The notes under the pieces were generated by a model that saw nothing but the letters and a program-made list of their open reading frames with translations, did no database searches and had not been told where the DNA came from. This document shows, one piece after another, positions 1,172 through 52,583 of a stretch of DNA of 64,000 nt (its first letter is position 1; every line of letters begins with the position of its first letter). The stretch is from Thermoplasmata archaeon. Its GTDB lineage: Archaea > Thermoplasmatota > SW-10-69-26 > JACQPN01 > JAJPHT01. The position numbers and the translations under genes are program-made. The stretch is from assembly GCA_034667685.1 (NCBI GenBank), contig JAXDQU010000054.1, positions 1 to 64,000 of the forward strand. The letters run 5' to 3'.

Positions 1172-1411
1172 ATGGGAACGACGTCGATCCAGATCGACTC
1201 CAAGACCCGTGCGAAGCTTGCTCGGCTCAAGGCCGGCCCCCGCGAGACCTACGACGAGGTCCTGAACAAGCTGATGTCGCTCATCCCGGAGGGGGACGAG
1301 GAAGGGAAGTTCACCGACGAGTTCCGGCTCGGACTCCTGGAGGCCAAGCTCGACGTGAAGGCCGGACGCACCATCAGCCAGGATGAGATGAAGCGCCGGC
1401 TGGGCCTTTGA
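1172..1411 (+). CDS. Type II antitoxin (RHH-like, archaeal RelB-type)
   Basis: 79 aa, TTSIQI...ETYDEVL...GRTISQDEMKRRLGL; TGA overlaps the toxin ATG; TATA-like CTATATG about 25 nt upstream. Confidence 0.8.
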   Translation: MGTTSIQIDSKTRAKLARLKAGPRETYDEVLNKLMSLIPEGDEEGKFTDEFRLGLLEAKLDVKAGRTISQDEMKRRLGL

Positions 1412-1665
1412 TGCGCTGGACCGTCGCCTGGTCGCGCCGCGCCGAGAAGGACATGCTTGCCCTCGACGTCGCCATCGCGCGGCGCGTGCTCGGCAAGATC
1501 GCCGACGCGGCGCAGGACCCGCCGGCGTCCTTCGTGCGCCTCCAGGGAGCCGACGAATGGAAGCTCCGCATCGGCGACTACCGGGCGCTCGCGTACCTCT
1601 CCTTCGAGGACCGCCGCGTCACGGTCGCGCGCGTGCTCCGTCGCTCCGCGGCGCACAAGCGCTGA
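1411..1665 (+). CDS. RelE/ParE-family toxin
   Basis: 84 aa, basic, with RRAEKDM...RLQGADEWKLRIGDYR; translationally coupled to the antitoxin. Confidence 0.88.
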   Translation: MRWTVAWSRRAEKDMLALDVAIARRVLGKIADAAQDPPASFVRLQGADEWKLRIGDYRALAYLSFEDRRVTVARVLRRSAAHKR

Positions 1666-2946: not shown

Positions 2947-3049
2947 CGGCCGAGCAACCCCAGCCTGAGCCTTAGCCTTCGCCCCAGCCGGCCGATCCCA
3001 AGAGGCTGAATTGCGAGCGCTTAAGAACGTCCTGGGGAGACTCCCCCTC

Positions 3050-20298: not shown

Positions 20299-23200
20299 TC
20301 ACCGCTTGGCGAGCGTCAAGCGCGCCGAAGCGAGCACGCGGTCCCCCTCGCGGCGCGCCTCGATCGAGATGCCCTCGCCCTGCATCGCCGCGAAGCGCTC
20401 CTTGGCCGCGCCGCGCAGCTCGACCTGCACCTGGCCGCCGGCGGCGTGGAGCCGGATCTCGTGGAGCGGGAGCGAGAGCCCGGCGCCCAGCGCCTTGAGC
20501 ACGGCCTCCTTGGCGGCCCACGCGAGCGCCAGCGCAGCCGGGCGCGCGTGCCCCGCGGGGAAGCCGGCGCGTTCCTCGGGCGTGAACGCCTCGTCCTCGA
20601 AGGCGGACGCGCGCGGCTCCACGACCTCCAGGTCGATGCCGACGCGCTCGCGGTCGACGTCGTAGAGCGCGGCCGCGCCGGCCCCGCCCGCGTGCGAGAG
20701 CGTGATGCCCCTGGCGCCGTGCGCGAGCGGCGCGCCGTCCGGGCCGCGCAGGATCGGCATCTGGCTCCACGGACGCGCGTCGCCCGCGGCGCGAAGCGCG
20801 GCCTTGGCCGCCAACGTCGCGGCGAGCCAATCCTCCTTGCGCTTCGTGACGGGCAGCGCGGAGAGCGCGGCCTGCTCGTCGGGTGATAGCACGCCCGACC
20901 AGAGGCCGGGCCGCTCCAGGAGCGCGCGCGCCGTCTCGACGCCCACGCGCGTGACGTTGGTGCCGCCCACGTGCACGACGTCGTGCAGCCAGGGCGCGAT
21001 GCCCGGAAGCGCGGCGGGGCCCGTGACGATGAGCGCGACGCCCTGCATCGCGATGGCGACCTCGCCGTCCACGATGCATTGCACGTCGCCCTTGACGCGG
21101 TTGTCCTCCAGGCGCGCGTGCGCGACGCGGTACGTGGCGCGGCCCGGCTCGAAGGGGCCGAAGAGGTCGACGCGCCCCACGCGCTCGGGAAGCGCCATGA
21201 CGCCGCCCACGGCGAGGCCCCAGAGGCCCAGCGCCTGGAACGCGCCCTCCATGAGCGCGGCCGCGGGCGGGATCCCCTCGGCGGGGGCGCGGCCCGCGCA
21301 CTCGATGCCATCCGACGCGGCGCGCGTCGGGCGTGATAGCACCTGGAACGCGGGGCCATGGAAGAACGGCGGGTAGACCCGCTCCGCGCTCCAGGGGTGC
21401 CCGGCGGCGCTCCACGGCGCGGGGCGCGGCGCGGCCGTGCCGAGCAGGCGCGCGGTGAAGTGCGTGCGCGGCTGGCGAAGAGGACCCGGAGGGACGGAGG
21501 TGACGGAGGCCCTGCCGCCGCTCTCGACGTGCACCGTGATATCAACGGGCTGGTCGCGCAGCAGCTTCACCGGGTACGCGAAGTGCACGTCCTCCATCGC
21601 GGGGACCGGCGTGGGCGACGCGCTCGTCATCGCGCTCATGCCCAGGACACCCGCGAGGTAGGGCACGCCCTCGACGCGGTGGTCGTCGAGCGCCGGGTCG
21701 GTGGCGCGCAGGGTCTGCGTCGATCCGGCGGGCTGCCCGACGGGCTCCTCGTGCGGCTGCGCCTCGAGCTGGCCGAGGCCCTTCGCGAGCACGACCTCGG
21801 GCTCGTCGAGGCGCGCCAGCTCCGAGAGGAACGCGGAGACGCCCTCCGCCGTGGTGATGGGCTCGACGCCCGCGGCCTTGAGCACGGTGAGCGTGCTCCC
21901 CTTCGTCGCCATGCCGACCTCGCCCCACGGGCCCCAGGCGAACACGGAGGCGCCGACGCCCTTGGCGCGCAGCGCGCGGGCCAATTTTGATATCGCGTCG
22001 TTGGCGGCGGAGTAGTCGGCTTGCGCCGCGTTGCCGTAGCGCCCCGCGACGCTGCCGAACATGACGAAGAACGCCGGCGGCTCCTTCTCCAGGAGACGCG
22101 CGAGGGCGAACGCGGCCTCGGCCTTGGGCTTCCACGCGCGGTCGAAGGCGCCTTCGTCCTTGTCGGCGAGGCGCTTGCTCTCCTCCAGGCCCGCGGCGTG
22201 GATGACGCCGTGGATGCGCCCGAAGCGCGCGCGGACGTCGTGGACCGCGCGCTCCAGCGCCGCGACGTCGGAGGCGTCGGCCTGCACGTACTCGGCGGTG
22301 GCGCCCAGCGCGCGAAGCTCGGCGAGGTTGCGCGCGATCTCCGCCTTGGCGCGCAGCGGCGCGACGCGCTTCTCGATGGCGACGGGCGTGACGCGCTCGC
22401 CGGCGGCCTTGAGGTCGGCCATCGCCTGCTCCTTGGCGCGCGTCTCGTCGAACGCTTCGCCGGTGGGCGGCGCGGTGCGGCCCAGGAGGACGAGCGTCGG
22501 CTTCTGCGGCGCGAGCGCCTTGAGCGCTTCCGCGGTGATGCCGCGCGCTCCGCCCGTCACGAGCAGCACGGCGCCCGCGGGCAGCTTGGGGTGCTGGCCG
22601 TCCGTCGTGCCCGCCTCGATGGTGCGCACGACGACGCGGCCGCGCGCGGAGCGGCCCACCTCGACCAGCGAGCGCTCGACGCGCAGCTCCGCCTCGACGT
22701 GGTGGACGCGGCGCGCGACGTCCTCGGCGGGATCGAGGTCCAGCGCGCGCACCCACGCCTTGGGGAACTCGGCCGCGAGCGCCTTCGCCATGCCGGTCAG
22801 GCCGCCCTGCTCGGGGTGCGCCGCGTGGTCGATGCCGCTGTGGCCGCCCATCTCGGTGACGACGAGCAGGCCGAGCCTTCCGTTGTCGAGGTCGTTGGCG
22901 CGGCTGCGCGCGAAGAGGAACAGCTCGCGCGCGGGGCCGCTGAAGATCGCGATATCACCTTGGGCGTGCGGCCACTTGTGGCGCAGCGCCTCGGCGAGCG
23001 CGCCGTGCCCGGCCACGAAGGCGGATCGCGTGGCGCTCCCCTCGGCGTGCGCGGGCGAGACGCGCGGCACGCGACGGACGAGCGCGGTGGCCGGCGCGTT
23101 CACGCGCGCCGTGTCGAGCGGCGCGGCGCTGGCGGCCGTCTGCGCGGCGGTGGCGCGGCCCGCGTGCGTGCTGATGAAGCCCGCGACGTGGCTCATCGTC

Positions 23201-26200
23201 GGGTAGTCCTTGAGGTTGACGCCCTCGATGCGCGGGATGCCGAACGCCTCGCGCAGCTCGCCGAAGATCTCGGCCTGCTTCACGGTGTCAATGCCCAGGT
23301 CCGCTTCCATGTCGAGGTTCGGATCGAGCATCTCCGGCGGGTAGCCGGTCTTCTGCGCGACGAGCGCCACGACCTTCGATAGCACGTCGTGCGCGGCGCC
23401 GGGGCCCTTCTGTGGCGCGGGGGCAGGCTGCGGCGCGGCGGGGTTGGGCGCGAACTGCGCGGGCGGCGCGGTGAACGGCACGGGCGGCGTGGGCGCCATC
23501 GCCTCCGCCACGGTCGGCGTGCCCGACATGCGCGAGACGAGGTAGTCGGCCACCTTCGCCAGCGTCGGGATGTCCTTGAGCGTCAGCTTGTCGTCGCGCG
23601 GCAGCCCGTAGCTCTCGCGCAGGATGCCGAAGATCTCCGCCTGCTTGACGGTGTCAATGCCCAGGTCCGCCTCCATGTCGAGGTTGGGATCGAGCATCTC
23701 GGGCGGATAGCCCGTCTTCTCGGCGACGAGGCCCATGACCTTCTGGACGACGGCCTCGCGCGGGACGCCGGCGACCGGGGAGGCCGGCGCGGGCTTCGGC
23801 GCCTCGGTCTGGACCGGCACGCTCACGGGCGGCGCGGGCGCCACGGTCGCGTTGCCGGTGACGCGGAGCACGCGCCCCTGCATCGCCGTCTTGGCGCCGC
23901 TGCCGCCGACGCACTGGTCGAGGAACGATTGATAGCGCGTGGCGTCCGCGACGCGGGCATCGCCCTGCGCCATGCGCTCGAAGAACGCCATCGCGAGCTG
24001 CGAGCCGAAGCCCGCGCTGAAGCGCATGGCGAACCGGCGCTGGTGCGCGCCGCCGCGGCTGAGGTTCAGGTCGGCGAACTCCGGGTCGACGTCGCGCAGG
24101 TTGGCGATCGGCGGCACCTTGCCGTATTGCAGCGACTTGACCGCGAGGGCGTCCTCGATGCCTGCGCCCATCGGGTGGCCGGTGAAGCCCTTCGTGTTGG
24201 TCACGAGGACCTTGGTCGCGCCGCTGCCGAACGCCGCGCGCATGGCGGCCGCCTCGGCCGACGCGGAGCCGCCGCGGGCGGGCGTGTACGTCTCGTGCGA
24301 GACGAAGATGGTGTCCTGGCCGAGCGCGTCGACGGCGAGGTTCAGCCGCCTCGCGGCGGCGTCGACCAGCGCCTTGGCCTCCTTGGCGATGTGCTCGACG
24401 TGGAGGCGCGAGCCGTGGTACGCGCTGTTCGCGATGCGGGTCGCGACGAGCCGGGCGACGGGCGTCATGCCGCGCGCCTCCACGTCCTCGCGGCGCTCCA
24501 GCACGAGGCCGACGGCGCCCATGCCGATGATCATGCCGTGGCGGCGGCGGTCGAACGGAAGCGCGCCTTCCTCGACGCTGCCGGCGGTGGTGGCCGCGCC
24601 GGAGACGAGGAAGCCGCTGCCGATCCACTCCAGGAGGTTCTCGGAGGTCACGTCGTCCGCGCCGACCACCACGACGCGTCGCGCTCGGCCGGTGCGCATC
24701 CAGTCCTCCGCGATGGCGATGGCCTGCGTGCTGCTGCTGCACGCCGCGTTGACCTGCGTGTTGGGCCCGCGCGCGACGATCGTCTCGGCAAGCTCGGCGT
24801 GCCCGAGGCTGAGGATGCTGAAGAGGAAGTGGCGGTTGAACGCCGCGACACCGTCCTCGTCGCCCGCGAGCTCGTGCAGCTCGTGCGCGTGCTTGGCGTA
24901 GAACGCGCTGATGCGGCTCTTCTTCTCGACGGGCACGGCGTCCAGAAGCTCGTGGTAGAGCGCGTCGAGCTCCGTGAGCGTGGCCTTCGCGTAACGCCTC
25001 GCCAGGTGGCGGCTCACTTCCTGCACGAAGTTGTCGTAGCCGGGGAACGCGCTGGCGAAGATGATGCCGGTGTCGTCCTGCATGTGCGGAGGCAGCACCC
25101 AGTCGCCGGGGAGGATCTTCCCGGTGGTCGTGCGCTTCATCTCCTGCACCATCGGGATGCCCGCGTCCCGCAGCGCCTCGTAGGCCGCCGCGATGGCGAG
25201 CTTGCTGGTGATATCAAGCGTCTTGAGGAGCTTGGGATCGACGGCGTAGTCGCGCTCCATGTCGAGCCCGCCCTTGCGCCCGGCGAGCTTGAGGACCTCG
25301 CTGGCGTCCTTCACGGGCTCCATGCGCGGCTCGCCCTCGCCCTTCACGAGCCGGACGATCTCCTTGTCGAGGAACTTGCCCGCCCATTGCGTGTCGAGCC
25401 GGTCGATGCGGTTCTCGCCGCGGAAGAGCGCCTCGAAGTTGTCGTCGCCGAAGATGCGCTTCGCGGAGCCGGGCAGCCCCGCGGCCGCGCCGCTGACCAC
25501 GACGTCGACGGGGAGCAGGCCATAGCGCGAGAAGGCGCCCTCGGCCTCCTTCAGGCGCGCAAGCTCGCGCTGGAAGCCATCAAAGCTGCTCTTGAGCGCC
25601 GCGTCGAGCATGGGCTGGACGCTGGTGCGGAACGCCTCGTAGCTGCCGTCCGTCGGGCCGACGACCTGCGTCGGGCGCGGCGCCGCGGCCTGCGGCATGG
25701 CCTCGGTGGCGTCGCCGCTGGGCAAGGATAGCTCGAACCCGACGGCGCCCAGCTTGGCGACCGAGTCCAGGAACGAGGCGAGGTCGCCGCGCTTGGGGTG
25801 GTTCGTCGTGACCGCGAGCACGGCCTGGCCCAGGGTGGCCTCGACGAAGCCCGAGAGCGCGCGCTTCGGGCCGACCTCGACGAAGATCGTCGCGCCCGCG
25901 GCCTGCATCGCCTTCAGCTCCGCGATCCACTCGACGGGCGCGGCGATCTGCTTGGAAAGGATATCACGAATCGCGTCGGGGCTCGCGGGGTAGAGCGTCG
26001 CGTCGATGTTCGTGTAGCACGGGATGCGTGGCGCCTGGAAGCCGAGCCGATCCAGCACGCGGCGCAGCGGCTGCGCGGCGGGCGCCACGATGCTCGTGTG
26101 GAACGCGGCGCTCACGTTGAGCTGCATCACGTCGATGCCCATGCTTTTGGCGACCTGCATCGCCTTCTGCACGGCCGGCGTCTCGCCCGCGATCACGGTC

Positions 26201-29200
26201 TGCACGGGACAGTTCTTGTTGGCCGCGACGACGTAGCCGGGCACCTGGCGGAGCACCTGCTCGACCTGCTCGGGGCCCGCGGAGACGGAGGCCATCAGGC
26301 CCTTGTCGGGCACCTGGACGCCGGCCATCTCCTTGCCGCGCGCCGAGACGGCGAGCAGCGCGTCTTCGAACGATAGCACGCCCGCGGCCACGAGGGCTGC
26401 GTACTCGCCCAGCGAGTGGCCGCCTACCATGTCCGGCTTGATGCCGTGCTCGGCCAGCAGGCGGAAGATGGCGACGTCGGCCGCGAGCATCGCGGGCTGC
26501 GTCACCTCGGTCTGCTTGAGCGACTCCTCGGCGCGCGCCACCGCGGCCGCGTCCTTCGGGTCGACCCAGAGCAGCGTGGTGAGCTTGCTTCCGAGCAGCG
26601 GCTCCAGCACGCGGTCCGCCTCGTCGAACGTCGCGCGCACCACCGGGTAACGCATGGCAAGCTCGCGGCACATGTTGGCGTACTGCGAGCCCTGGCCCGG
26701 GAAGAGGAACGCGACCTTGCCCGTGGGACGGCCCTCGGCGAACGCGGCGCCCTTGACCTTGAGCGGGAGCGCCTGGCGTCCCTTCGGGTCGAGGATCAGC
26801 GGCGCGGCGGCTTCGAGCGCGGCGGCGAGCCCGGCGCGGTCCTGCGCGCCCAGCCCCAGGCGCACGCTGCGGGTGTGCGCGCGGGGCGTCCGCACGTGGC
26901 GCGCGGCCTGCTCCAGCGTCGCGGCGGCCTTGACCTGTGCGACCGCGGCCTTCGCCTCCGCGGCCAGGCCTTCCACGCTGTCGGCCGCGAGCACCACGAC
27001 CTCGCCCTCGATCTGCGGGGCGAGGGCGGCGGGCGCGCGGGCCTGCAAGGGCGCGGCCGCGGGCTTCGGCTTCGCCGCGTGGTACTCGGGCAGGAATTCC
27101 TCGAGGATGACGTGGAAGTTCGTGCCGCCGAAGCCGAACGCGGAGACGGCGGCGCGGCGCGGCTCGCCCGTGGGCGTCTTGGGCCACGGCTCGGCGCTCG
27201 TCTGCACCTTGAAGGGGACCTTGCTCCAGTCGATGTTCGGGTTGGGCGTCTGGAAGTTGATCGACGGCGGGAGCGTCTTGTGGTGGAGCGCGAGCGCGGC
27301 CTTGAGCATGCCCGCGGCACCCGCGGCGCTCTTGAGGTGGCCGATCTGCGACTTGACGGAGCCGAGCGCGACGCTCTGGGACGGGAGCGGGCCGAAGACC
27401 TCGGCGATGCTCTCGACTTCGACCACGTCGCCGACCTTGGTGCTCGTGCCGTGCGCCTCGACGAGCTGCACGTGCTTGGGCTGGACCTCGGCGACCTGGA
27501 AGGCGCGCTTGACGGCGAGCTTCTGGCCGTCGGGGTTGGGCGCGGTGATGCCCTTGCCCTTGCCGTCGCTGCTGCTGCCCATCCCGCGGATGACGCAATA
27601 GATGCGGTCGCCGTCGCGCACCGCGTGAGATAGCTTTTTCAGGAGCAGGATCGCGACGCCCTCGCCCATGACGAAGCCGTTGGCGCGCGCGTCGAAGGGG
27701 GTGCTGCCGGTGGGCGAAAGCGCGCCGATCTTGCAGAACTTGACGTAGGTCGCGGGGTCCATGCTGCGGTCCGCGCCGCCGCAGAGCACCATGTCGGCCT
27801 CGCCGCCGAGGATCGCCTTGACGGCGGTGTCGAGCGCGGCGTGGCTGCTGGCGCACGCGGCGTCGGTGGTGAGGTTCTTGCCGGTGAGATTCAGCACGTT
27901 GGCGAGCCGGCCGGCGATGACGTTTGATAGCTCGCCGGGCATCGAGTCCTCGGTGATGGTGGGCAGCGTCGCCTTGAACTGCGCGAGCGCGCGGTCCACG
28001 TCGGCGGCCGGCATCGACTTGCGCAGCGCTGCGGCGAACTCCGCGGCGTGCATGCGCTTCGAGGTCTCGTCCTTCATCTCGCCGCCCAGCGAGTTGCCCA
28101 GGATGACGGCGCAGCGCTGGCGATCGAACGGCTTGCGGTCATACCCCGCGTCCGCGAGCGCCTCGGCAGCCGCCGTCAGCGCCATCTGCTGCACGGGGTC
28201 GAGCGCCTTCGCCGTGTTGGGCGGGATGCGGAACTTCAGCGCGTCGAAGCGGAAGCCGGTGATGAAGCCCCCGATCTTCGCGTAGGTCTTGTCCTCCTTC
28301 GTCGGGTCCGGGTCGTAGTGCACGCTCGCGTCCCAGCGGTCGGCCGGGACCTCGACGATGCAGTCCACCTTGTTCAGGACGTTCTGCCAGAACTCGCCCG
28401 CGTTGTTCGCGCGCGGCAGCACGGCGCCCACGCCGATGATCGCCACGGCCTCCTCGTGCGGCACCGTCTCGAAGCGCGGCGCGGTGACGGGCTCCGCGTT
28501 CAGCCGGGTGTGCCCGATGGGCGCGGCGGGGGGCTCGGCCATCCGAGGATCGGGCATCGCCTCGCGCGGGGGAGGCGAAGGGATGCTGGGGGAGGCGGAG
28601 GGAGGTGGGGGGAGGCTGGGGGTGGGCGCCGCGCCCATGCGCCCCGCGAGATAATCCGCCACTTTCTCGAGCGTCGGGATGTCCTTGAGCGTGAGCTTGT
28701 CGTCGCGCGGCAATTGATAGCTTTCGCGCAGGATGCCGAAGATCTCCGCCTGCTTCACCGTGTCGATGCCGAGGTCCGCCTCCATGTCGAGGCCGGGGTC
28801 GAGCAGGTCCTTCGGGTAGCCGGTCTTCTGCGCCACGAGGTCGATGACCTTCGCCAGGACCGCAGCCCGCGTAGCGGGCGAGGACCCCGACGAAGCCGCA
28901 GCTTCGTTGAGGACTTCCTCGCGCTTCGCTCCGGACGCGGCGGGCGCGGGCGGAGCGGCGGGCGCAGCAGCGGGCGCCGGGACCGGCGCGGGCGGGGGCG
29001 GCGGAGGGAGGCTCGGGGAGGCGGAGGGAGGCGGGGGGAGGCTGGGCGCGCCGAGGTCGCTGCGCACCTGCGCGATCGCGCCCGCGAGCGAGCCGGCGCG
29101 CTTGGCGAGGAACGGCGCGAGCAGCGCGTCGCGGCCCACCTTCAGGCCGCTGGGCAGCGTGGCGGAGCCGCCCGCGAAGTCGTTCGCGCCGAGCCGCGCC

Positions 29201-29517
29201 ATCGCGGCCTTGTCGTCGGCGGAGAGCGGCGACTCGGGGAGGAGCCAGAGCTGCGCGTCGAGGATGACGCCCGCGGCGCCGGCCTCCGCGACGGCCTTGA
29301 GCGTCGCGCGGTCGAGTCCGCCCTGGGCCAGCGGTTGCTGCCCCAGGGACACCAGCCGCTTGACCTCGGCGAGCGTCTGCGCGGACGTCTGTCCGCGCGC
29401 GACGGGGTGGCCGTCCACGACGGCGTCGTCCGCGAACATGAGCGGCAGGCCACCGGCGGCTGCCACCTTGACGGCGAAGTCCGGGTTCCCGTTCGGCGTG
29501 ACGACGTAGAGCTTCAT
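20299..29517 (-). CDS. 3072-aa type I PKS / PUFA-synthase(PfaA)-like megasynthase: ER-like stub-ACP-KS-AT-KS-ACP-ACP-KR-DH-PPTase
   Basis: KS1 [35 protein letters not shown]; KS2 [22 protein letters not shown]; 3x [35 protein letters not shown]; PPTase SH/[11 protein letters not shown]. Confidence 0.95.
   Translation of the reverse strand: [3072 protein letters not shown]
20305..20960 (-). other. C-terminal Sfp-type 4'-phosphopantetheinyl transferase domain (approximate bounds)
   Basis: [43 protein letters not shown]. Confidence 0.88.
21020..21720 (-). other. PKS dehydratase domain (approximate bounds)
   Basis: [29 protein letters not shown]. Confidence 0.75.
21800..23060 (-). other. Ketoreductase, structural and catalytic subdomains (approximate bounds)
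   Basis: [42 protein letters not shown]. Confidence 0.88.
23165..23765 (-). other. Tandem ACP2 and ACP3 (Thr-type)
   Basis: [31 protein letters not shown] twice, joined by a Pro/Ala linker. Confidence 0.88.
23970..25510 (-). other. Second, divergent ketosynthase domain (approximate bounds)
   Basis: VVVSG start; [37 protein letters not shown]. Confidence 0.8.
25730..26720 (-). other. Acyltransferase domain (approximate bounds)
   Basis: [33 protein letters not shown]. Confidence 0.92.
27100..28450 (-). other. First ketosynthase domain (approximate bounds)
   Basis: AIIGVG start; [33 protein letters not shown]. Confidence 0.93.
28640..28870 (-). other. N-terminal ACP1 (Thr-type) between duplicated [12 protein letters not shown] linkers
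   Basis: [31 protein letters not shown]. Confidence 0.88.
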
Positions 29518-29521
29518 GATA

Positions 29522-30343
29522 TCACTGGGGCCCTTCGTAGGGGTTGAGACGAGGCTCGATGAGCAGGCGGTCCATCTCGGGCGGCGCGCCGACGCTGACG
29601 TAGCCCGCGTCGACGTAGATCGTCTGTCCCGTGATGCCGCCGCTGTCGGGCGTGAGGAGGAACCGCGCGGCCTTCGCGACGTCGACCTGCGTGACGTTGC
29701 GGCGCAGCGGCGTGTTGTTCGCCATCCAGTCGAGGATCTGGTCGAAGCCGGGCACGCCGGAGGCGGCGAGCGTCTTGATCGGGCCCGCGCTGATGGCGTT
29801 GACGCGGATGCCGTAGCCGGGGCCGACGCTCGCGGCCAGCTCGCGCACGAGCGACTCGATGGCAGCCTTCGCGGTGCCCTGCACGCGGTAGCCCGGGACG
29901 ACGCGCTGGCCGCCCAGGTACGTGAGGGCGACGATGCCCGCGTCGCGGTTGAGCAGCGGCAGGCCGTTGCGCACGACGCGGACGAGGCTGTACGCGCTGA
30001 TGGTGAGCGTGGTGTTGAAGTCGGCCTCGGTGGTCTCCGTGATCGGCTTCATGAGCGCCTCGGCGGGCGTGAAGGCGATGGCGTGGACGAGGCCGTCGTA
30101 CTTGCCGTGGAGCTTGGCGTGGAACGCCTTGACCGAGTCCTCGGAGGAGACGTCGCACTCCTCCATCTGGTCGATCCACTTCTGGTCCTTCGCAAGCTGG
30201 AGGACGCGGCTCATGAACCGCTTCTGGTAGGCGAGCGTGACGGTCGCGCCGCGGCCCGCAAGCTCCTGTGCGATGGCCCAGGCGATGCTGGTGTCGCTGG
30301 CGACGCCGTACACGAGGAAACGCTTGCCTTGGAGGTCGTTCAT
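29522..30343 (-). CDS. fabI: Enoyl-ACP reductase (FabI-type SDR)
   Basis: GVASDTSIAWAIA, LTYLG, PGYRVQGTAK (Yx6K), RVNAISAGPIKTLAASG, ITGQTIYVDAG. Confidence 0.92.
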   Translation of the reverse strand: MNDLQGKRFLVYGVASDTSIAWAIAQELAGRGATVTLAYQKRFMSRVLQLAKDQKWIDQMEECDVSSEDSVKAFHAKLHGKYDGLVHAIAFTPAEALMKPITETTEADFNTTLTISAYSLVRVVRNGLPLLNRDAGIVALTYLGGQRVVPGYRVQGTAKAAIESLVRELAASVGPGYGIRVNAISAGPIKTLAASGVPGFDQILDWMANNTPLRRNVTQVDVAKAARFLLTPDSGGITGQTIYVDAGYVSVGAPPEMDRLLIEPRLNPYEGPQ

Positions 30344-30496: not shown

Positions 30497-32089
30497 TCAG
30501 AGGGGGATGTTTCCATGTTTGCGGGGCGGCCGCTCCACGTGCTTGGACGCGAGGCGGGCCAGGTGCGCCGACACGTGGGCGCGCGTCGTCGCGGGGTCGA
30601 TGATGTCGTCCACGAAGCCCAGCTCGGCGGCGAACATCGGGTTGCCGAAGCGGTCGCGGTAGCCGGCCTCCAGCTCCTTGCGGAAGTCCTCGTCCGCATT
30701 CTTCAGCTCGCGGCGGTGCAGGATCTGGACCGCGCCCTGCGCGCCCAGCACGGCGATCTCCGCCTGCGGCCACGCGAGGTTGACGTCGCTGCGCAGGTGC
30801 TTGCTGCACATGACGATGTACGCGCCGCCGTAGGCCTTGCGCGTGACGACGGTGATCTTGGGGACCGTGGCCTCGCAGTAGGCGTAGAGGAGCTTCGCGC
30901 CGTGGCGGATGATGCCGCCGTGCTCCTGCTCGCGGCCCGGGAGGAAGCCCGGCACGTCCACGAGGCTGAGGAGCGGGACGTTGAACGCGTCGCAGAAGCG
31001 CACGAAGCGCGCGGCCTTCTCGGAGGCCTGCACGTCGAGGACGCCGGCGAGGACCTTGGGCTGGTTGGCGACGATGCCCACGACGCGCCCTTCGACGCGG
31101 CCGAAGCCGACGACGACGTTGCGCGCCATCGCGGCGTGGATCTCGAAGAACGAGTCGCGGTCCAGGATGCCGGCCATCACGTCGCGCATGTCGTAGGGCT
31201 GCGACGAGTCGGGCGGGACGACGGTGCGGAGCGCCTCGGGGTCCTGCGCGGGGATCGGCTCGTAGCGCGGCGGGTGCTCGAGGTGGTTCTGCGGCAGGTA
31301 GGAGAGGAGCGCGCGGATCTTGTCGAGCGTCTCCTCGTCCGTCTCGCCCGTGAGGTGGCAGACGCCCGAGTCGTTGGCGTGCACGTCCGCGCCGCCCAGG
31401 TCCACGTGGGTCGTCTCCTCGCCCAGGACCGTCTTCACGACGTCCGGGCCGGTGAGGTACATGTAGCTCGTCTTGCGCGTCATCAGGACGAAGTCCGTGA
31501 GCGCGGGGCCGTAGACCGCGCCGCCGGCGCAGGGCCCGAGGATGCCGGCGACCTGCGGGATGACGCCCGATGCGTCCACGTGCCGCTGGAAGATGTCGCC
31601 GTAGCCGCCCAGCGCCGCCACGCCTTCCTGGATGCGGGCGCCGCCACTGTCATTGAGCGCGACGAGGGGCACGCCGGTGGCGATGGCTTGCTCCATGATC
31701 TTGCAGATCTTGCGCGCCTGGGCGGACCCCAGCGAGCCGCCGGACACGGTGAAGTCCTGCGCGTAGATGCACACGGAGCGGCCGTGGATCTTGCCGTAGC
31801 CGGTGACGACGCCGTCGCCCGGGTGCGTGTCCTGCGGCAGGCCGCGGGAGAGCCCCTGGTGGACGGCGAAGGAGTCCGTCTCCATGAAGGAGCCCGGGTC
31901 CAGAAGATAGGCGATGCGCTCACGCGCCGTCATCTTCCCCTTGGCGTGCTGGGCCGCGATCTTCTCGGGGCCTCCGCCCTCCCGGCTGCGCTGGCGCGCG
32001 AGCTCGATGGGGTCCAGGGTCACGCGCCCGGCGTTGGGCGAGACGCGGACGATGGCGGGCTTCTGCGGCGCGGCCGTGGGGACGGTCAT
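30497..32089 (-). CDS. Acyl-CoA carboxylase carboxyltransferase subunit (PccB/AccD-like)
   Basis: QHAKGKMTARER, DSGGARIQEG, GPCAGGAVY, DVPGFLPG, RKAYGGAY, RKHGNIPL. Confidence 0.95.
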   Translation of the reverse strand: MTVPTAAPQKPAIVRVSPNAGRVTLDPIELARQRSREGGGPEKIAAQHAKGKMTARERIAYLLDPGSFMETDSFAVHQGLSRGLPQDTHPGDGVVTGYGKIHGRSVCIYAQDFTVSGGSLGSAQARKICKIMEQAIATGVPLVALNDSGGARIQEGVAALGGYGDIFQRHVDASGVIPQVAGILGPCAGGAVYGPALTDFVLMTRKTSYMYLTGPDVVKTVLGEETTHVDLGGADVHANDSGVCHLTGETDEETLDKIRALLSYLPQNHLEHPPRYEPIPAQDPEALRTVVPPDSSQPYDMRDVMAGILDRDSFFEIHAAMARNVVVGFGRVEGRVVGIVANQPKVLAGVLDVQASEKAARFVRFCDAFNVPLLSLVDVPGFLPGREQEHGGIIRHGAKLLYAYCEATVPKITVVTRKAYGGAYIVMCSKHLRSDVNLAWPQAEIAVLGAQGAVQILHRRELKNADEDFRKELEAGYRDRFGNPMFAAELGFVDDIIDPATTRAHVSAHLARLASKHVERPPRKHGNIPL

Positions 32090-32120
32090 CGAGGCACCCC
32101 GCGCGGCGAGGCCGGGCTTC

Positions 32121-32137
32121 GGGTAAATGCCTTTTCG
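32121..32137 (-). promoter_or_regulatory. Putative archaeal BRE/TATA promoter of the carboxyltransferase-fabI-PKS cluster
   Basis: Minus strand CGAAAAGGCATTTACCC about 35 nt upstream of ATG 32089. Confidence 0.5.
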
Positions 32138-32250
32138 TCGTGACAAGGAGTGAAAACGAGTGAAGACCACAAGCGAAATCGGCGCACGCCGGAGAGGGGC
32201 ACGGCGGCTTGGTGGGGGGCTGTGGGAGATACAGCCGCGCGGACGGGGCT

Positions 32251-32321
32251 CTGGGCTCAGGACTCCGGGCTCGGGGCTCTCCGGGTGCAGGGCAAGCGGA
32301 AGCCCCGAGTCCTGAGCCCAG
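32251..32321. repeat. Intergenic inverted repeat with 7-nt periodicity
   Basis: CTGGGCTCAGGACTCCGGGCT (32251-32271) versus 32301-32321, 1 mismatch. Confidence 0.8.
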
Positions 32322-32381
32322 GCTGAGCGCAAGTTGATAGAAGAAAAGAAGGCCGCGCGCAGGCGGCCCCGGAGGGTGGCC

Positions 32382-49877: not shown

Positions 49878-52583
49878 TCAGTCCTGGTTTCCATCTTCAA
49901 AGGTCGGCCGAATTCTCGGTAGCCGAATTGCTCCCTGACCCATGACCGCCAAATCAACTCCCGAGAGGTTCGCCTTTGAGAAGTCTGCGCCCGCAACATG
50001 GGACTCCTTGAATGATGCGCTTGAAAGGTTTGCCTCTCTGAAAATGACATTGGCGAACCGCCCTCTGTCGAACCTCGCTCCGGAGAGGTTTGCATTTCGG
50101 AATGTGGCCCCTTGGCAAACGCTGTCTGTAAGGTCACATTCTGCCATGTTCGCGTAGTCAAAGCAAGCGAAATTCGCCCCGCAGGAACTGAGTTTGCTTC
50201 CTTCAAGGTCGGCCCCATAGAAGTCTTGGATGTGGAGCAGCGAGCCACTAAGGTCGAGATAGGTCAGGCTTTGCGAGACGATTCCTGGCACCGGCCCCAT
50301 TCGTTGCCTTCGGACTCGCAGATACCAACCACCAAAGACGTCCAGCGAATTCAAGTTTAGCGAACTGACCTTTCTCGTCGTCCGGGTACAAGCACTGTGA
50401 GCAGCAAGGAGACTCTCTTCGGCATTCCTCGCCTGCCGCTGTGAGTCCGCGAAAGTAGACGTCCCAGGAACCGATTCCATCGGCAGGCCGCTCCTGATTG
50501 TGTGGGCGAGAAGTTTCGCCAGCGCACCCTGCCACCGAAGAACCGCTGCTTGATCTCTTAAGGCGATTTCGCGCCTTAGAAAGTCGTTTACGTACTCGTC
50601 TATGTTGTTTGGACCACACAACTGCGCCCAATGGACGAGTGCTTCGCGTTCACCCCACCCGGTGTCCGGATCTTGGGAGCGACGCAACATCTCATCCGTA
50701 ATCCGCGTAATCCCGCGGACGATACGCCTTGCGGCGAGATATTCTCCGAAGCTCTTGTGAGTGAATTCGAACGTCTTTTCTCCATCCGAGGCCGTGCCCG
50801 CCTGTCTGAAATAGAACGCGGTGAGTAGCCGAGTTACACCGGCTCGGGCACCCTCTTGGAATGCGTCGAGCAAGATCTTCAGGCCAGTATTCGAGCAATG
50901 TCGTTCAATTTCGCGGACTGTCGTCGTTCTGCTGGCGCCGTGCCAGGCTGCGATGCCAATTTCTTCAAGGATGCGGACGAAAGAATCGAGACTTACATTG
51001 CGGATCGAAAGATGCTGCTCAGCGGCCCAGCCGCGCTCGTACACCGCCTCGAGAAGGTCCTGATAGGCGGCGTTCACGTTGTGCTCAATCGAGAAGTCTA
51101 CCTTGCCTCTTTCATATGAAAGAGCGACGAGATAGTTTAACAGGGGTTGGGCAGTGATCTCGTCGAGTTCACGGCTTGCCAAGGCCTTGGGCATCCCATC
51201 ATATGGTTTGCCTTTCATCCTGCCATAGTTTCGCCACCAGGCTTGACGTTGATCGACGCTCAGGCGCTTTTCCGGATCATCGAATTCCTCGTATGACGAC
51301 GGGGGAATCCAATAAGGCAACACAGTAAGAACTTGGCGAGGACGCCTAAATTCTGTAATGTTCGATTGAATTACAATTTGCCTCCCCGTAATGAGGACCT
51401 GCAGCCTCAATTGTACGCTGTTCTTCCTTGCGAGAGTGCGTTGGACTTCTCGCACAAATGCACGTGCCGTTTCCTCGGCGACTTTCCCCTGCAGCGCGAG
51501 TTCGTCGAGACCGTCGAAAATGATCAAAAGCCGATTGTCGCCGCCTTCGCGATCCATTGGATTGTGAACAAGGTATGGGTCGTCGCGGACGAAATTCCGG
51601 ACTGCATCCGAGAGCTCGCCACTTGGATCAAATTGATGGAGCGGAACGAAAAGAACACGCACCTTCTCAAGTGCTGCAACTCGCGCAGCGAACATCTTTG
51701 CGAAGGATGACTTCCCGGCCCCAGGATCTCCGCTGACGATACGAAGAGCGTCGTCGACGTCGGCGCTTTCGATCCAACCGAGTAATTCGCGTTCAAGATC
51801 GACAACTACTTTGCGTTCCTGTTGAAAGGCAATCGGCGCCGGATTAGACTCAGTCTTTCGAGGGTAGGAAGCCCGGACGGGAACGTATACCGATTTGAGA
51901 CTGAAAGCTTCGTCGAATAACGGGGAATCGGTTTGCCGATTGAGCCACGAGCCATACGCGGCCCAGCCGAGTTCTCTGCGAATCGCGTCCCCAAAGGGCG
52001 AATCCAGATACAACAGAAGCTTCGCATAACGATCGGGGTTCGCTATCCATTCACGATGGAGTTCGACTGCGAAATATGTCGGCAGTCGGCTGGCGATAGC
52101 CCACGCGTGCGGCTTGTCGACGCCCGCGTTCTCAAGACATTCCCTAAAGTACTCTTGTGAACGTTCTACGATTGGCAATTTCAGAGGGTCGCGGAGACTT
52201 TTCGAATCTATTGCGAACTCAATGTCGCCGACTCCAATGTCAAAATCTTCATTGAACTCGACGATTGCATCTGGGTCGAAGAATTCCTTGCTTTCATTGA
52301 CTAGAGCGCTAACTGCGCGGAACTGAGCTGTGAAGAATAGTTGGCTCGCTAGAACTTCGGGCTCAGCGTCAGTGCGGACGGCGGTCACAGTGTCAATCAC
52401 GCTGTTTATCGCCGTTGGCACGTCGCCGGCTTTCGCTGCGACGATACACTTGGCAAAACCCTGCACGAGTGCGCTTGGTTTGACGGTAAGTCGGACCTTG
52501 GACCGCCGCGTGCTGATTTTCACGCCAACGGGGGTCCCATTAGCGGACGGCTTTCCGCGCGCCACGGTTACTCTGGACGGCAT
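49878..52583 (-). CDS. NACHT/STAND NTPase with C-terminal pentapeptide repeats (lower-GC gene)
   Basis: Walker A GDPGAGKSS, Walker B LIIFDGLDE, QPLL, FEFTHKSFGEYL, A(N/D)LSGA(R/D)F repeats; many A/T-ending codons. Confidence 0.9.
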   Translation of the reverse strand: MPSRVTVARGKPSANGTPVGVKISTRRSKVRLTVKPSALVQGFAKCIVAAKAGDVPTAINSVIDTVTAVRTDAEPEVLASQLFFTAQFRAVSALVNESKEFFDPDAIVEFNEDFDIGVGDIEFAIDSKSLRDPLKLPIVERSQEYFRECLENAGVDKPHAWAIASRLPTYFAVELHREWIANPDRYAKLLLYLDSPFGDAIRRELGWAAYGSWLNRQTDSPLFDEAFSLKSVYVPVRASYPRKTESNPAPIAFQQERKVVVDLERELLGWIESADVDDALRIVSGDPGAGKSSFAKMFAARVAALEKVRVLFVPLHQFDPSGELSDAVRNFVRDDPYLVHNPMDREGGDNRLLIIFDGLDELALQGKVAEETARAFVREVQRTLARKNSVQLRLQVLITGRQIVIQSNITEFRRPRQVLTVLPYWIPPSSYEEFDDPEKRLSVDQRQAWWRNYGRMKGKPYDGMPKALASRELDEITAQPLLNYLVALSYERGKVDFSIEHNVNAAYQDLLEAVYERGWAAEQHLSIRNVSLDSFVRILEEIGIAAWHGASRTTTVREIERHCSNTGLKILLDAFQEGARAGVTRLLTAFYFRQAGTASDGEKTFEFTHKSFGEYLAARRIVRGITRITDEMLRRSQDPDTGWGEREALVHWAQLCGPNNIDEYVNDFLRREIALRDQAAVLRWQGALAKLLAHTIRSGLPMESVPGTSTFADSQRQARNAEESLLAAHSACTRTTRKVSSLNLNSLDVFGGWYLRVRRQRMGPVPGIVSQSLTYLDLSGSLLHIQDFYGADLEGSKLSSCGANFACFDYANMAECDLTDSVCQGATFRNANLSGARFDRGRFANVIFREANLSSASFKESHVAGADFSKANLSGVDLAVMGQGAIRLPRIRPTFEDGNQD

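Follow-up and report, generated by a model that had tools for sequence, protein, structure and literature searches.

The window analysed here, 64,000 nucleotides at the start of contig JAXDQU010000054.1 from the genome of a Thermoplasmata archaeon (assembly GCA_034667685.1), carries on its reverse (-) strand an uninterrupted open reading frame (ORF) of 9.2 kb (20299-29517). It encodes a putative Type R-like iterative lipid synthase of 3072 amino acids, in which threonine takes the place of the attachment-site serine in all three acyl carrier protein (ACP) domains. The order of the domains, all on the same strand, is an N-terminal region, ACP1, a first ketosynthase (KS1), an acyltransferase (AT), a second ketosynthase (KS2), ACP2, ACP3, a ketoreductase (KR), a dehydratase (DH), and a fused 4'-phosphopantetheinyl transferase (PPTase). 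ACP1 (residues 205-300, 28618-28905) is followed by KS1 (residues 356-755, 27253-28452), with the motifs DAACASS at residue 552, EAHGT at 687, and GHLKSAAG at 726, and by the AT (residues 937-1232, 25822-26709), with GHSLGE at 1033. KS2 lies at the 'CLF' position of Type R synthases (23968-25530, limits approximate) and has kept its cysteine and two histidines (AACSSS at 1591, SHETYT at 1740, GFTGH at 1777). ACP2 (residues 1917-2000, 23518-23769) and ACP3 (residues 2035-2125, 23143-23415) stand in tandem before the KR (residues 2317-2532, 21922-22569, YSAAN at 2502). The following DH region of polyketide synthase (PKS) type (20968-21720, limits approximate) yielded a weak match to Pfam PKS_DH_N and has its histidine motif at residue 2613; the DH of homologues of the synthase gives a stronger PS-DH match than that of the window gene. 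At the C-terminus resides the PPTase domain of the Sfp/PptT type (residues 2887-3041, 20395-20859), with GIDLE at 2960 and WAAKEA at 3000 corresponding to the motifs GxDxE and WxxKE[AS]. It scored 59 bits against PF01648 (the ACPS lobe, cut-off 25) and weakly, below the cut-off of 27, against PF17837 (the 4PPT_N lobe, 20.6 bits), and its nearest solved sequences are PptT (8gkf) and Sfp (1qr0/4mrt).

A preliminary description of this DNA had noted intact AT, KS, and PPTase motifs; all of these are present, together with the catalytic motifs of KS2, KR, and DH. The best NCBIfam model for the whole synthase is PfaA (TIGR02813), whose cut-off of 1010.1 bits the protein narrowly misses with 999.4 bits, and PfaA ACP repeats are the best match for each of the three ACPs when excised. 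The KS matches in the synthase are the only strong ones in the window genome, a draft of 3.48 Mb in 124 contigs with a completeness of 99%, here called G000 (codes with G and f denote genomes and families of a 401-genome sample of the archaeal phylum, codes with L single loci). Residues 1-204, which precede ACP1 (28906-29517), gave no Pfam match. In two relatives from family f35 (L032 and L033) the N-terminus starts with two threonine-type ACPs instead.

Carrier proteins are primed on the serine of a GxDS motif, and the biochemistry of fatty acids, polyketides, and non-ribosomal peptides regards this attachment site as unchanging. In the window synthase GIDTVKQ occurs three times, in each ACP as DLGIDTVKQ, and the threonines concerned are Thr253, Thr1956, and Thr2078. 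The codons given for them in the preliminary description, ACG at 28759-28761, ACC at 23650-23652, and ACC at 23284-23286, respectively, are located exactly there. A degenerate DNA pattern for G-I-D-T-V-K-Q matched three times in the window and not once in each of 100 shuffles, and no G[IVLMF]DS motif was found in the 3072 amino acids of the synthase. The ACP domains match the Pfam PP-binding family (PF00550) with 64.1 bits at a cut-off of 20.8, and the conserved serine of its D-S-[LI] motif is replaced by threonine in three of three domains. A profile built from 27 ACPs of the threonine family matched the solved carriers PigH (5y08, E 7e-19) and the type II ACPs 6lvt and 3gzl, and its threonine column aligned onto the serine of D-S-[IL] in these proteins.

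This replacement proved to be a trait of a large protein family. ACP2 was used as query against 1.84 billion representative proteins, which yielded 6065 matches at E<=1e-3. Among the best 150 of these, 112 had threonine only in all their tandem ACPs (four of them fell outside the stricter site pattern and were assigned by a looser one), 37 had serine only, in canonical ACPs of the LGIDSIK[RK] type, and one was mixed (S-T-T). Residues other than threonine or serine were not seen at the site in these best matches. A second query with residues 1900-2130, directed at proteins of similar length, gave 4843 matches; among those listed, all 117 newly found full-length relatives had threonine only, with three to eight ACPs each and 551 motifs together. 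Named members of the family come from Acidobacteriota, Chloroflexota, Elusimicrobiota, Bacteroidota, Binatia, and Myxococcota-like metagenome-assembled genomes (MAGs), so that the earlier guess of similar motifs in bacterial homologues was correct; the closest named relatives of the window synthase are MAG proteins of 'Candidatus Thermoplasmatota archaeon'. A scan for LGIDTVKQ in one genome per prokaryote species found at least 600 stretches, of which at least 573 are confirmed relatives. One contig titled 'Candidatus Heimdallarchaeota archaeon' (L112) contains a fragment of a threonine-type synthase with fused PPTase, which is either truly present there or a binning error. A public record titled 'Proteobacteria bacterium' (L041) holds the same 3090 amino acid synthase as L016 (G108:C23) from the window's own genus, and its title is an apparent mislabel.

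The surroundings of the site differ between the two types in a regular manner. In 949 threonine-type domains the threonine is followed by valine at position +1 (99%), glutamine at +3, alanine at +4, phenylalanine at +7, and arginine at +11, whereas in 164 serine-type domains isoleucine at +1 (93%), arginine or lysine at +3, valine at +4, leucine at +7, and glutamine at +11 are found. As threonine pairs almost perfectly with valine and serine with isoleucine at +1, a steric compensation for the methyl group of threonine is suggested. The helix-II recognition motif is invariant across the 949 threonine-type domains, and none of their other positions offers a conserved alternative serine. At the DNA level 99 loci were inspected, 20 archaeal ones chosen by family and 79 from the motif scan, the latter being informative for codon usage only and not for the count of threonines since they were selected by the motif. 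All four threonine codons are in use (ACC 155, ACG 135, ACA 14, and ACT 5 times), therefore selection acts on the residue and not on the codon. The threonine at the carrier site is thus a real, strongly selected, and widespread feature.

Within the archaeal phylum the tandem ACP query matched 126 of the 401 sampled genomes, among them 58 of 58 in family f28, 23 of 24 in f20, 16 of 19 in f30, 11 of 36 in f11, and 6 of 8 in f1. The strict pattern G[IV]DTVKQAE was found in 95 of the 401 genomes and its reversed control in none; f20 is missed by this pattern only because of a valine at +4. The 20 archaeal loci, which were picked by family and not by the motif, contain 71 ACP domains, 65 with threonine and six with serine. 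Two families show exchange between both residues at corresponding positions. In f11 the ACP of G017 is GELGIDTVKQAEIM (GELGIDTVKQ), that of G092 and G356 GELGIDSIKQAEIM (GELGIDSIKQ), at an identity of 57% over 2900 amino acids between the synthases of G017 and G092. In f20 the positional orthologue ACP1 has threonine in G065 and serine in G124 (same genus, 65% identity) and in G099, and the five ACPs which follow it have threonine in all three genomes. Close homologues with serine had been named in the preliminary description as a finding that would speak against a threonine carrier; they do exist, in G092 and G356 and in ACP1 of G124 and G099, but they rather argue for the equivalence of the two residues at one and the same site and are not read as evidence against threonine ACPs.

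A FastTree phylogeny of the KS-AT region is consistent with this view. It is a quick tree with SH-like supports and without bootstraps, containing 63 rows, i.e. the window, 18 archaeal loci, and 30 threonine-type and 14 serine-type database proteins; random subsampling had set aside 87 of the 117 eligible threonine-type proteins, and a coverage filter removed G017, G088, and three serine-type proteins. The threonine-type proteins, including the window synthase, lie on one side of a branch with an SH-like support of 99. Inside this group the serine state arises twice, once in G092 and G356, sister to f28, and once in P0032, sister to P0027, and a minimum of three changes in all is required for the site on this tree.

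Another finding was the tight association of these synthases with a PPTase. A hidden Markov model made from 17 archaeal PPTase sequences was run over all loci. Among the 20 archaeal loci the PPTase was fused in 12 and located not more than 150 nucleotides downstream in six (18 of 20). From the motif scan 37 loci could be assessed, 42 further ones being not assessable, and 34 of the 37 had a PPTase, fused in eight, within 150 nucleotides in 15, and further downstream in 11; three had none. All 31 aligned PPTases have retained the core residues. In the window genome the C-terminus of the synthase is the sole match to PF01648, and a profile search of the whole genome with PF00550 found matches only inside the synthase ORF. 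Together with the missing G[IVLMF]DS motif this bears out the earlier statement that no GIDS-type ACP is seen, and the alternative considered at that time, an ACP encoded elsewhere, is not supported, as no other PF00550 or PF01648 match exists in this 99% complete genome. Ten additional genomes were searched for PF01648. Six of them (G017, G092, G356, G037, G065, and G188) have a single match, which is fused to the synthase or directly downstream of it; G154 has the fused PPTase and a sub-threshold match, and G173 one match unlinked to the synthase. PP-binding matches are likewise confined to the synthase in G017, G092, G356, and G037. The single PPTase found in each of G000, G017, and G037 consequently has no serine-type substrate in the genome, since no other carrier and no other PPTase was found.

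By its architecture and host range the family of the window synthase appears to match the uncharacterised Type R, one of the secondary lipid synthase cluster types described for Koribacter versatilis, Solibacter usitatus, Elusimicrobium minutum, and Roseiflexus spp. (Shulse & Allen 2011, PMC3098273). According to the available text of that paper, Type R clusters have one pfaA homologue with the order KS-MAT-'CLF'-ACP(3-6)-KR, a PPTase gene directly downstream, frequently a linked gene for acetyl-CoA carboxylase, and an unknown product; the word 'threonine' does not occur in this text, and the ACPs are treated as ordinary. The window gene likewise is a single pfaA homologue with KS, AT, a second KS-like region, PP-binding domains, KR, and DH, the same phyla dominate the matches to its family, and a protein from an Elusimicrobium minutum MAG agrees with it in Pfam architecture, contains four DTVKQ ACPs, and is followed by a PPTase 14 nucleotides downstream. 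It differs from the described clusters in that the PPTase is fused rather than encoded by a separate downstream gene, in having one N-terminal ACP and two in tandem instead of three to six in tandem, and in its archaeal host. The position of the window KS-AT region in the threonine-type clade (SH-like 99) was obtained with a tree that lacks the Type R reference strains Ellin345, Ellin6076, Pei191, and DSM 13941. What appears to be new is the threonine at the attachment site; the gene family itself was already known, albeit uncharacterised.

PfaA shares with the window synthase the order KS-AT...ACPn-KR-DH and the repeats (LGIDSIK[RK]) to which the window ACPs align. Unlike PfaA, the window protein stays just below the cut-off of the family model, has a second KS with Cys-His-His inserted, is accompanied by a FabI gene instead of the partners PfaB, PfaC, and PfaD, and has threonine with the V, Q, A, F, R pattern in place of serine with I, R/K, V, L, Q at positions +1, +3, +4, +7, and +11. 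PfaA and the threonine-type clade are separated on the KS-AT tree with an SH-like support of 99. Megasynthases with a built-in PPTase are known from the enediyne PKSE, where the C-terminal PPTase primes the serine of its own ACP. The PPT domain of the alpha-subunit of fungal fatty acid synthase (PDB 2was) is similar in that a C-terminal PPTase primes the ACP of the same enzyme. Both systems prime serine, and the window PPTase is of the two-lobed Sfp/PptT type.

Two genes lie upstream of the synthase on the same strand. The stop codon of a FabI-type enoyl reductase gene (29522-30343) precedes the ATG of the synthase by four nucleotides; its product probably acts in trans. Next to it a carboxyltransferase subunit of an acyl-CoA carboxylase is encoded (30497-32332), a likely source of malonyl-CoA. 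From the comparisons presented above we infer that Thr253, Thr1956, and Thr2078 are probably the phosphopantetheine sites of working ACPs which are primed by the linked Sfp-type PPTase. The preference of the preliminary description for functional threonine ACPs is in line with this, as conservation, exchange only with serine, and intact motifs all speak in its favour. In the proposed mechanism the C-terminal PPTase domain would take 4'-phosphopantetheine from coenzyme A (CoA) and place it on the hydroxyl group of threonine, which would yield O-phosphopantetheinyl-threonine rather than the canonical serine ester. The resulting holo-ACPs would work in an iterative type I synthase, in which the AT loads malonyl groups, KS1 and KS2 condense, the KR reduces, and the DH dehydrates. 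With the neighbouring FabI as enoyl reductase in trans the expected product would be a long, largely saturated acyl chain. Threonine would characterise the Type R clade as a whole, with occasional reversion to serine.

Several observations weigh against this assignment. The search of the window genome with PF00550 at E<=0.01 missed ACP1 of the synthase itself, because of which a divergent carrier might be present elsewhere in G000. G065 has an additional serine-type carrier outside the synthase, in a 533 amino acid frame at about 1350-1550 (+) of L120 (G065:C43); its site is DLGVDSVTQVEIF, and it otherwise resembles the first ACP of the synthase. G077 and G124 contain two PF01648 matches each, the second being AcpS-like. 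In the 31 aligned PPTases no residue clearly tracks the threonine or serine state of the carrier. The core motifs are identical. In alignment column 130 (the K of K-R-x-x-E, window residue about 2900) lysine is present in 27 of the 29 PPTases that belong to threonine ACPs, and alanine or serine in the two linked to serine ACPs (G092 and G356); this reflects a single evolutionary event, was therefore rejected as evidence for specificity, and counts as a lead only. Searches of the full-text literature, which extended neither to subscription journals nor to supplements so that prior notice is possible, returned no experiment reporting phosphopantetheine on threonine and no report of the motif string or of phosphopantetheinylated threonine. 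Variants of Escherichia coli ACP with serine changed to threonine are reportedly poor substrates or non-substrates of AcpS, and to our knowledge lists of protein modifications name only the serine ester. In the available portion of a preprint on the 'DSL' motif (10.1101/2025.01.28.635281) no data on an exchange of serine to threonine are given, and a paper on the landscape of hybrid polyunsaturated fatty acid (PUFA) synthases (PMC13291983) contains neither 'threonine' nor 'Type R'.

The missing canonical serine could also mean that the threonine domains remain unmodified and, as pseudo-carriers, serve structure or scaffolding, and that the enzyme uses CoA thioesters or a discrete, divergent carrier encoded elsewhere, which a PF00550 search that left ACP1 itself unreported may well miss. 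It would agree with this that, in the accessible part of a preprint (bioRxiv 10.1101/2024.07.05.601840), nearly all archaea are described as lacking ACP and ACP synthase, and archaea are said to make fatty acids without ACP. Yet the 99% complete genome yielded no further carrier, the sole PPTase would be left without a substrate, and the ACPs come in tandem multiples of three to eight copies like those of PUFA synthases. A dead site would moreover be expected to drift to alanine, glycine, and other residues, whereas serine is the sole replacement seen, and the helix-II recognition motif would hardly stay invariant in 949 domains. This explanation is therefore considered improbable. Threonine is chemically distinct from serine, and its surroundings deviate from those in PfaA ACPs in a regular way, with V, Q, A, F, and R at +1, +3, +4, +7, and +11, so the residue might bear a group other than 4'-phosphopantetheine, for instance another cofactor linked by a phosphodiester, or be acylated directly on its oxygen. 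The linked enzyme is, however, an ordinary PF01648 PPTase of the Sfp/PptT type whose GxDxE and WxxKEA core is intact, the KS, AT, KR, and DH domains are of the canonical kind that handles thioesters, and the revertants of serine type share the architecture and the same kind of PPTase, which makes a different group unlikely as well.

Attachment of phosphopantetheine to another residue, with a merely structural role for the motif threonine, would have to involve the threonine of KTGYP or that of P-T-[LI], which are 96-98% conserved in threonine-type domains. Both are equally conserved in the canonical serine-type ACPs of PfaA, where the serine is the known site, and both lie outside the N-terminus of helix II, which is the part addressed by PPTases in their complexes with ACPs; such a location is very unlikely. 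As the assembly behind the window is a draft in 124 contigs, one might finally suspect a sequencing or assembly error, repeat homogenisation in one MAG, or a decaying gene. A single sequencing error had already been dismissed in the preliminary description, rightly, as three sites with two different codons are affected. The identical motif occurs in other genomes (at least 573 confirmed stretches), among the 401 genomes of the phylum 95 have G[IV]DTVKQAE and none the reversed control, and the 9.2-kb frame runs without interruption and has kept all its motifs. Sequencing error, gene conversion, and a dead gene are effectively refuted as the source of the threonine by these comparative data.

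Priming of the threonine by the linked PPTase can be extended to a joint reading, to which we give about an even chance. O-(4'-phosphopantetheinyl)-threonine would then be a natural, family-wide, and so far unnoticed modification, which a lineage of Sfp-type PPTases, accompanying Type R synthases as a fused domain or a neighbouring gene, would install, and it would be the only carrier protein chemistry in the window archaeon and in many other Thermoplasmatota. Threonine would be kept by selection for something that serine does not do; if so, it might shield these carriers against housekeeping PPTases and ACP hydrolases, or make the phosphodiester less prone to beta-elimination. Judged from the sequences compared here, a universal modification seems to occur in this family in a so far unreported variant, with threonine as the attachment site. 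Serine is presupposed by rules for calling domains, by predictions of activity, which take an ACP without it as inactive, and by labelling tools; these would have to be corrected for this clade, the extent of which is given by at least 573 confirmed genome stretches and 126 of the 401 sampled genomes of the archaeal phylum. A new PPTase specificity, if true, would be useful for orthogonal protein labelling, and the threonine offers a tangible starting point for work on an orphan synthase family with no known product since 2011.

The finding also touches archaeal lipid biology. The window, which has a G+C content of about 72%, encodes the archaeal ribosomal proteins L10/P0 and L1, and G000 contains an archaeal GGGPS. 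Besides the complete ACP-dependent synthase, FabI, and the carboxylase subunit, the genome has four PlsC-type acyltransferase matches, one of them in a 1286 amino acid frame, and a biotin carboxylase outside the window locus; these lipid genes were matched on contigs C34, C69, C40, C21, C106, and C111. Because PlsC-type matches, GGGPS, and biotin carboxylase occur together, the archaeon may put fatty acids from the synthase into ester lipids alongside isoprenoid ether lipids. For Poseidoniales, the available part of one paper (PMC6461757) mentions fatty acid degradation and mixed lipids and no acyl carrier protein.

Neither tRNA genes nor Rfam families at the gathering threshold were found in the 64-kb window. 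A further gene on the reverse strand (49878-52583, -) encodes a 901 amino acid STAND NTPase composed of NNH3, NACHT, and pentapeptide repeats. It resides in a dip of the G+C content (0.547 at 50001-52000 compared to about 0.70 around), and the region looks like an acquired island, possibly related to defence.

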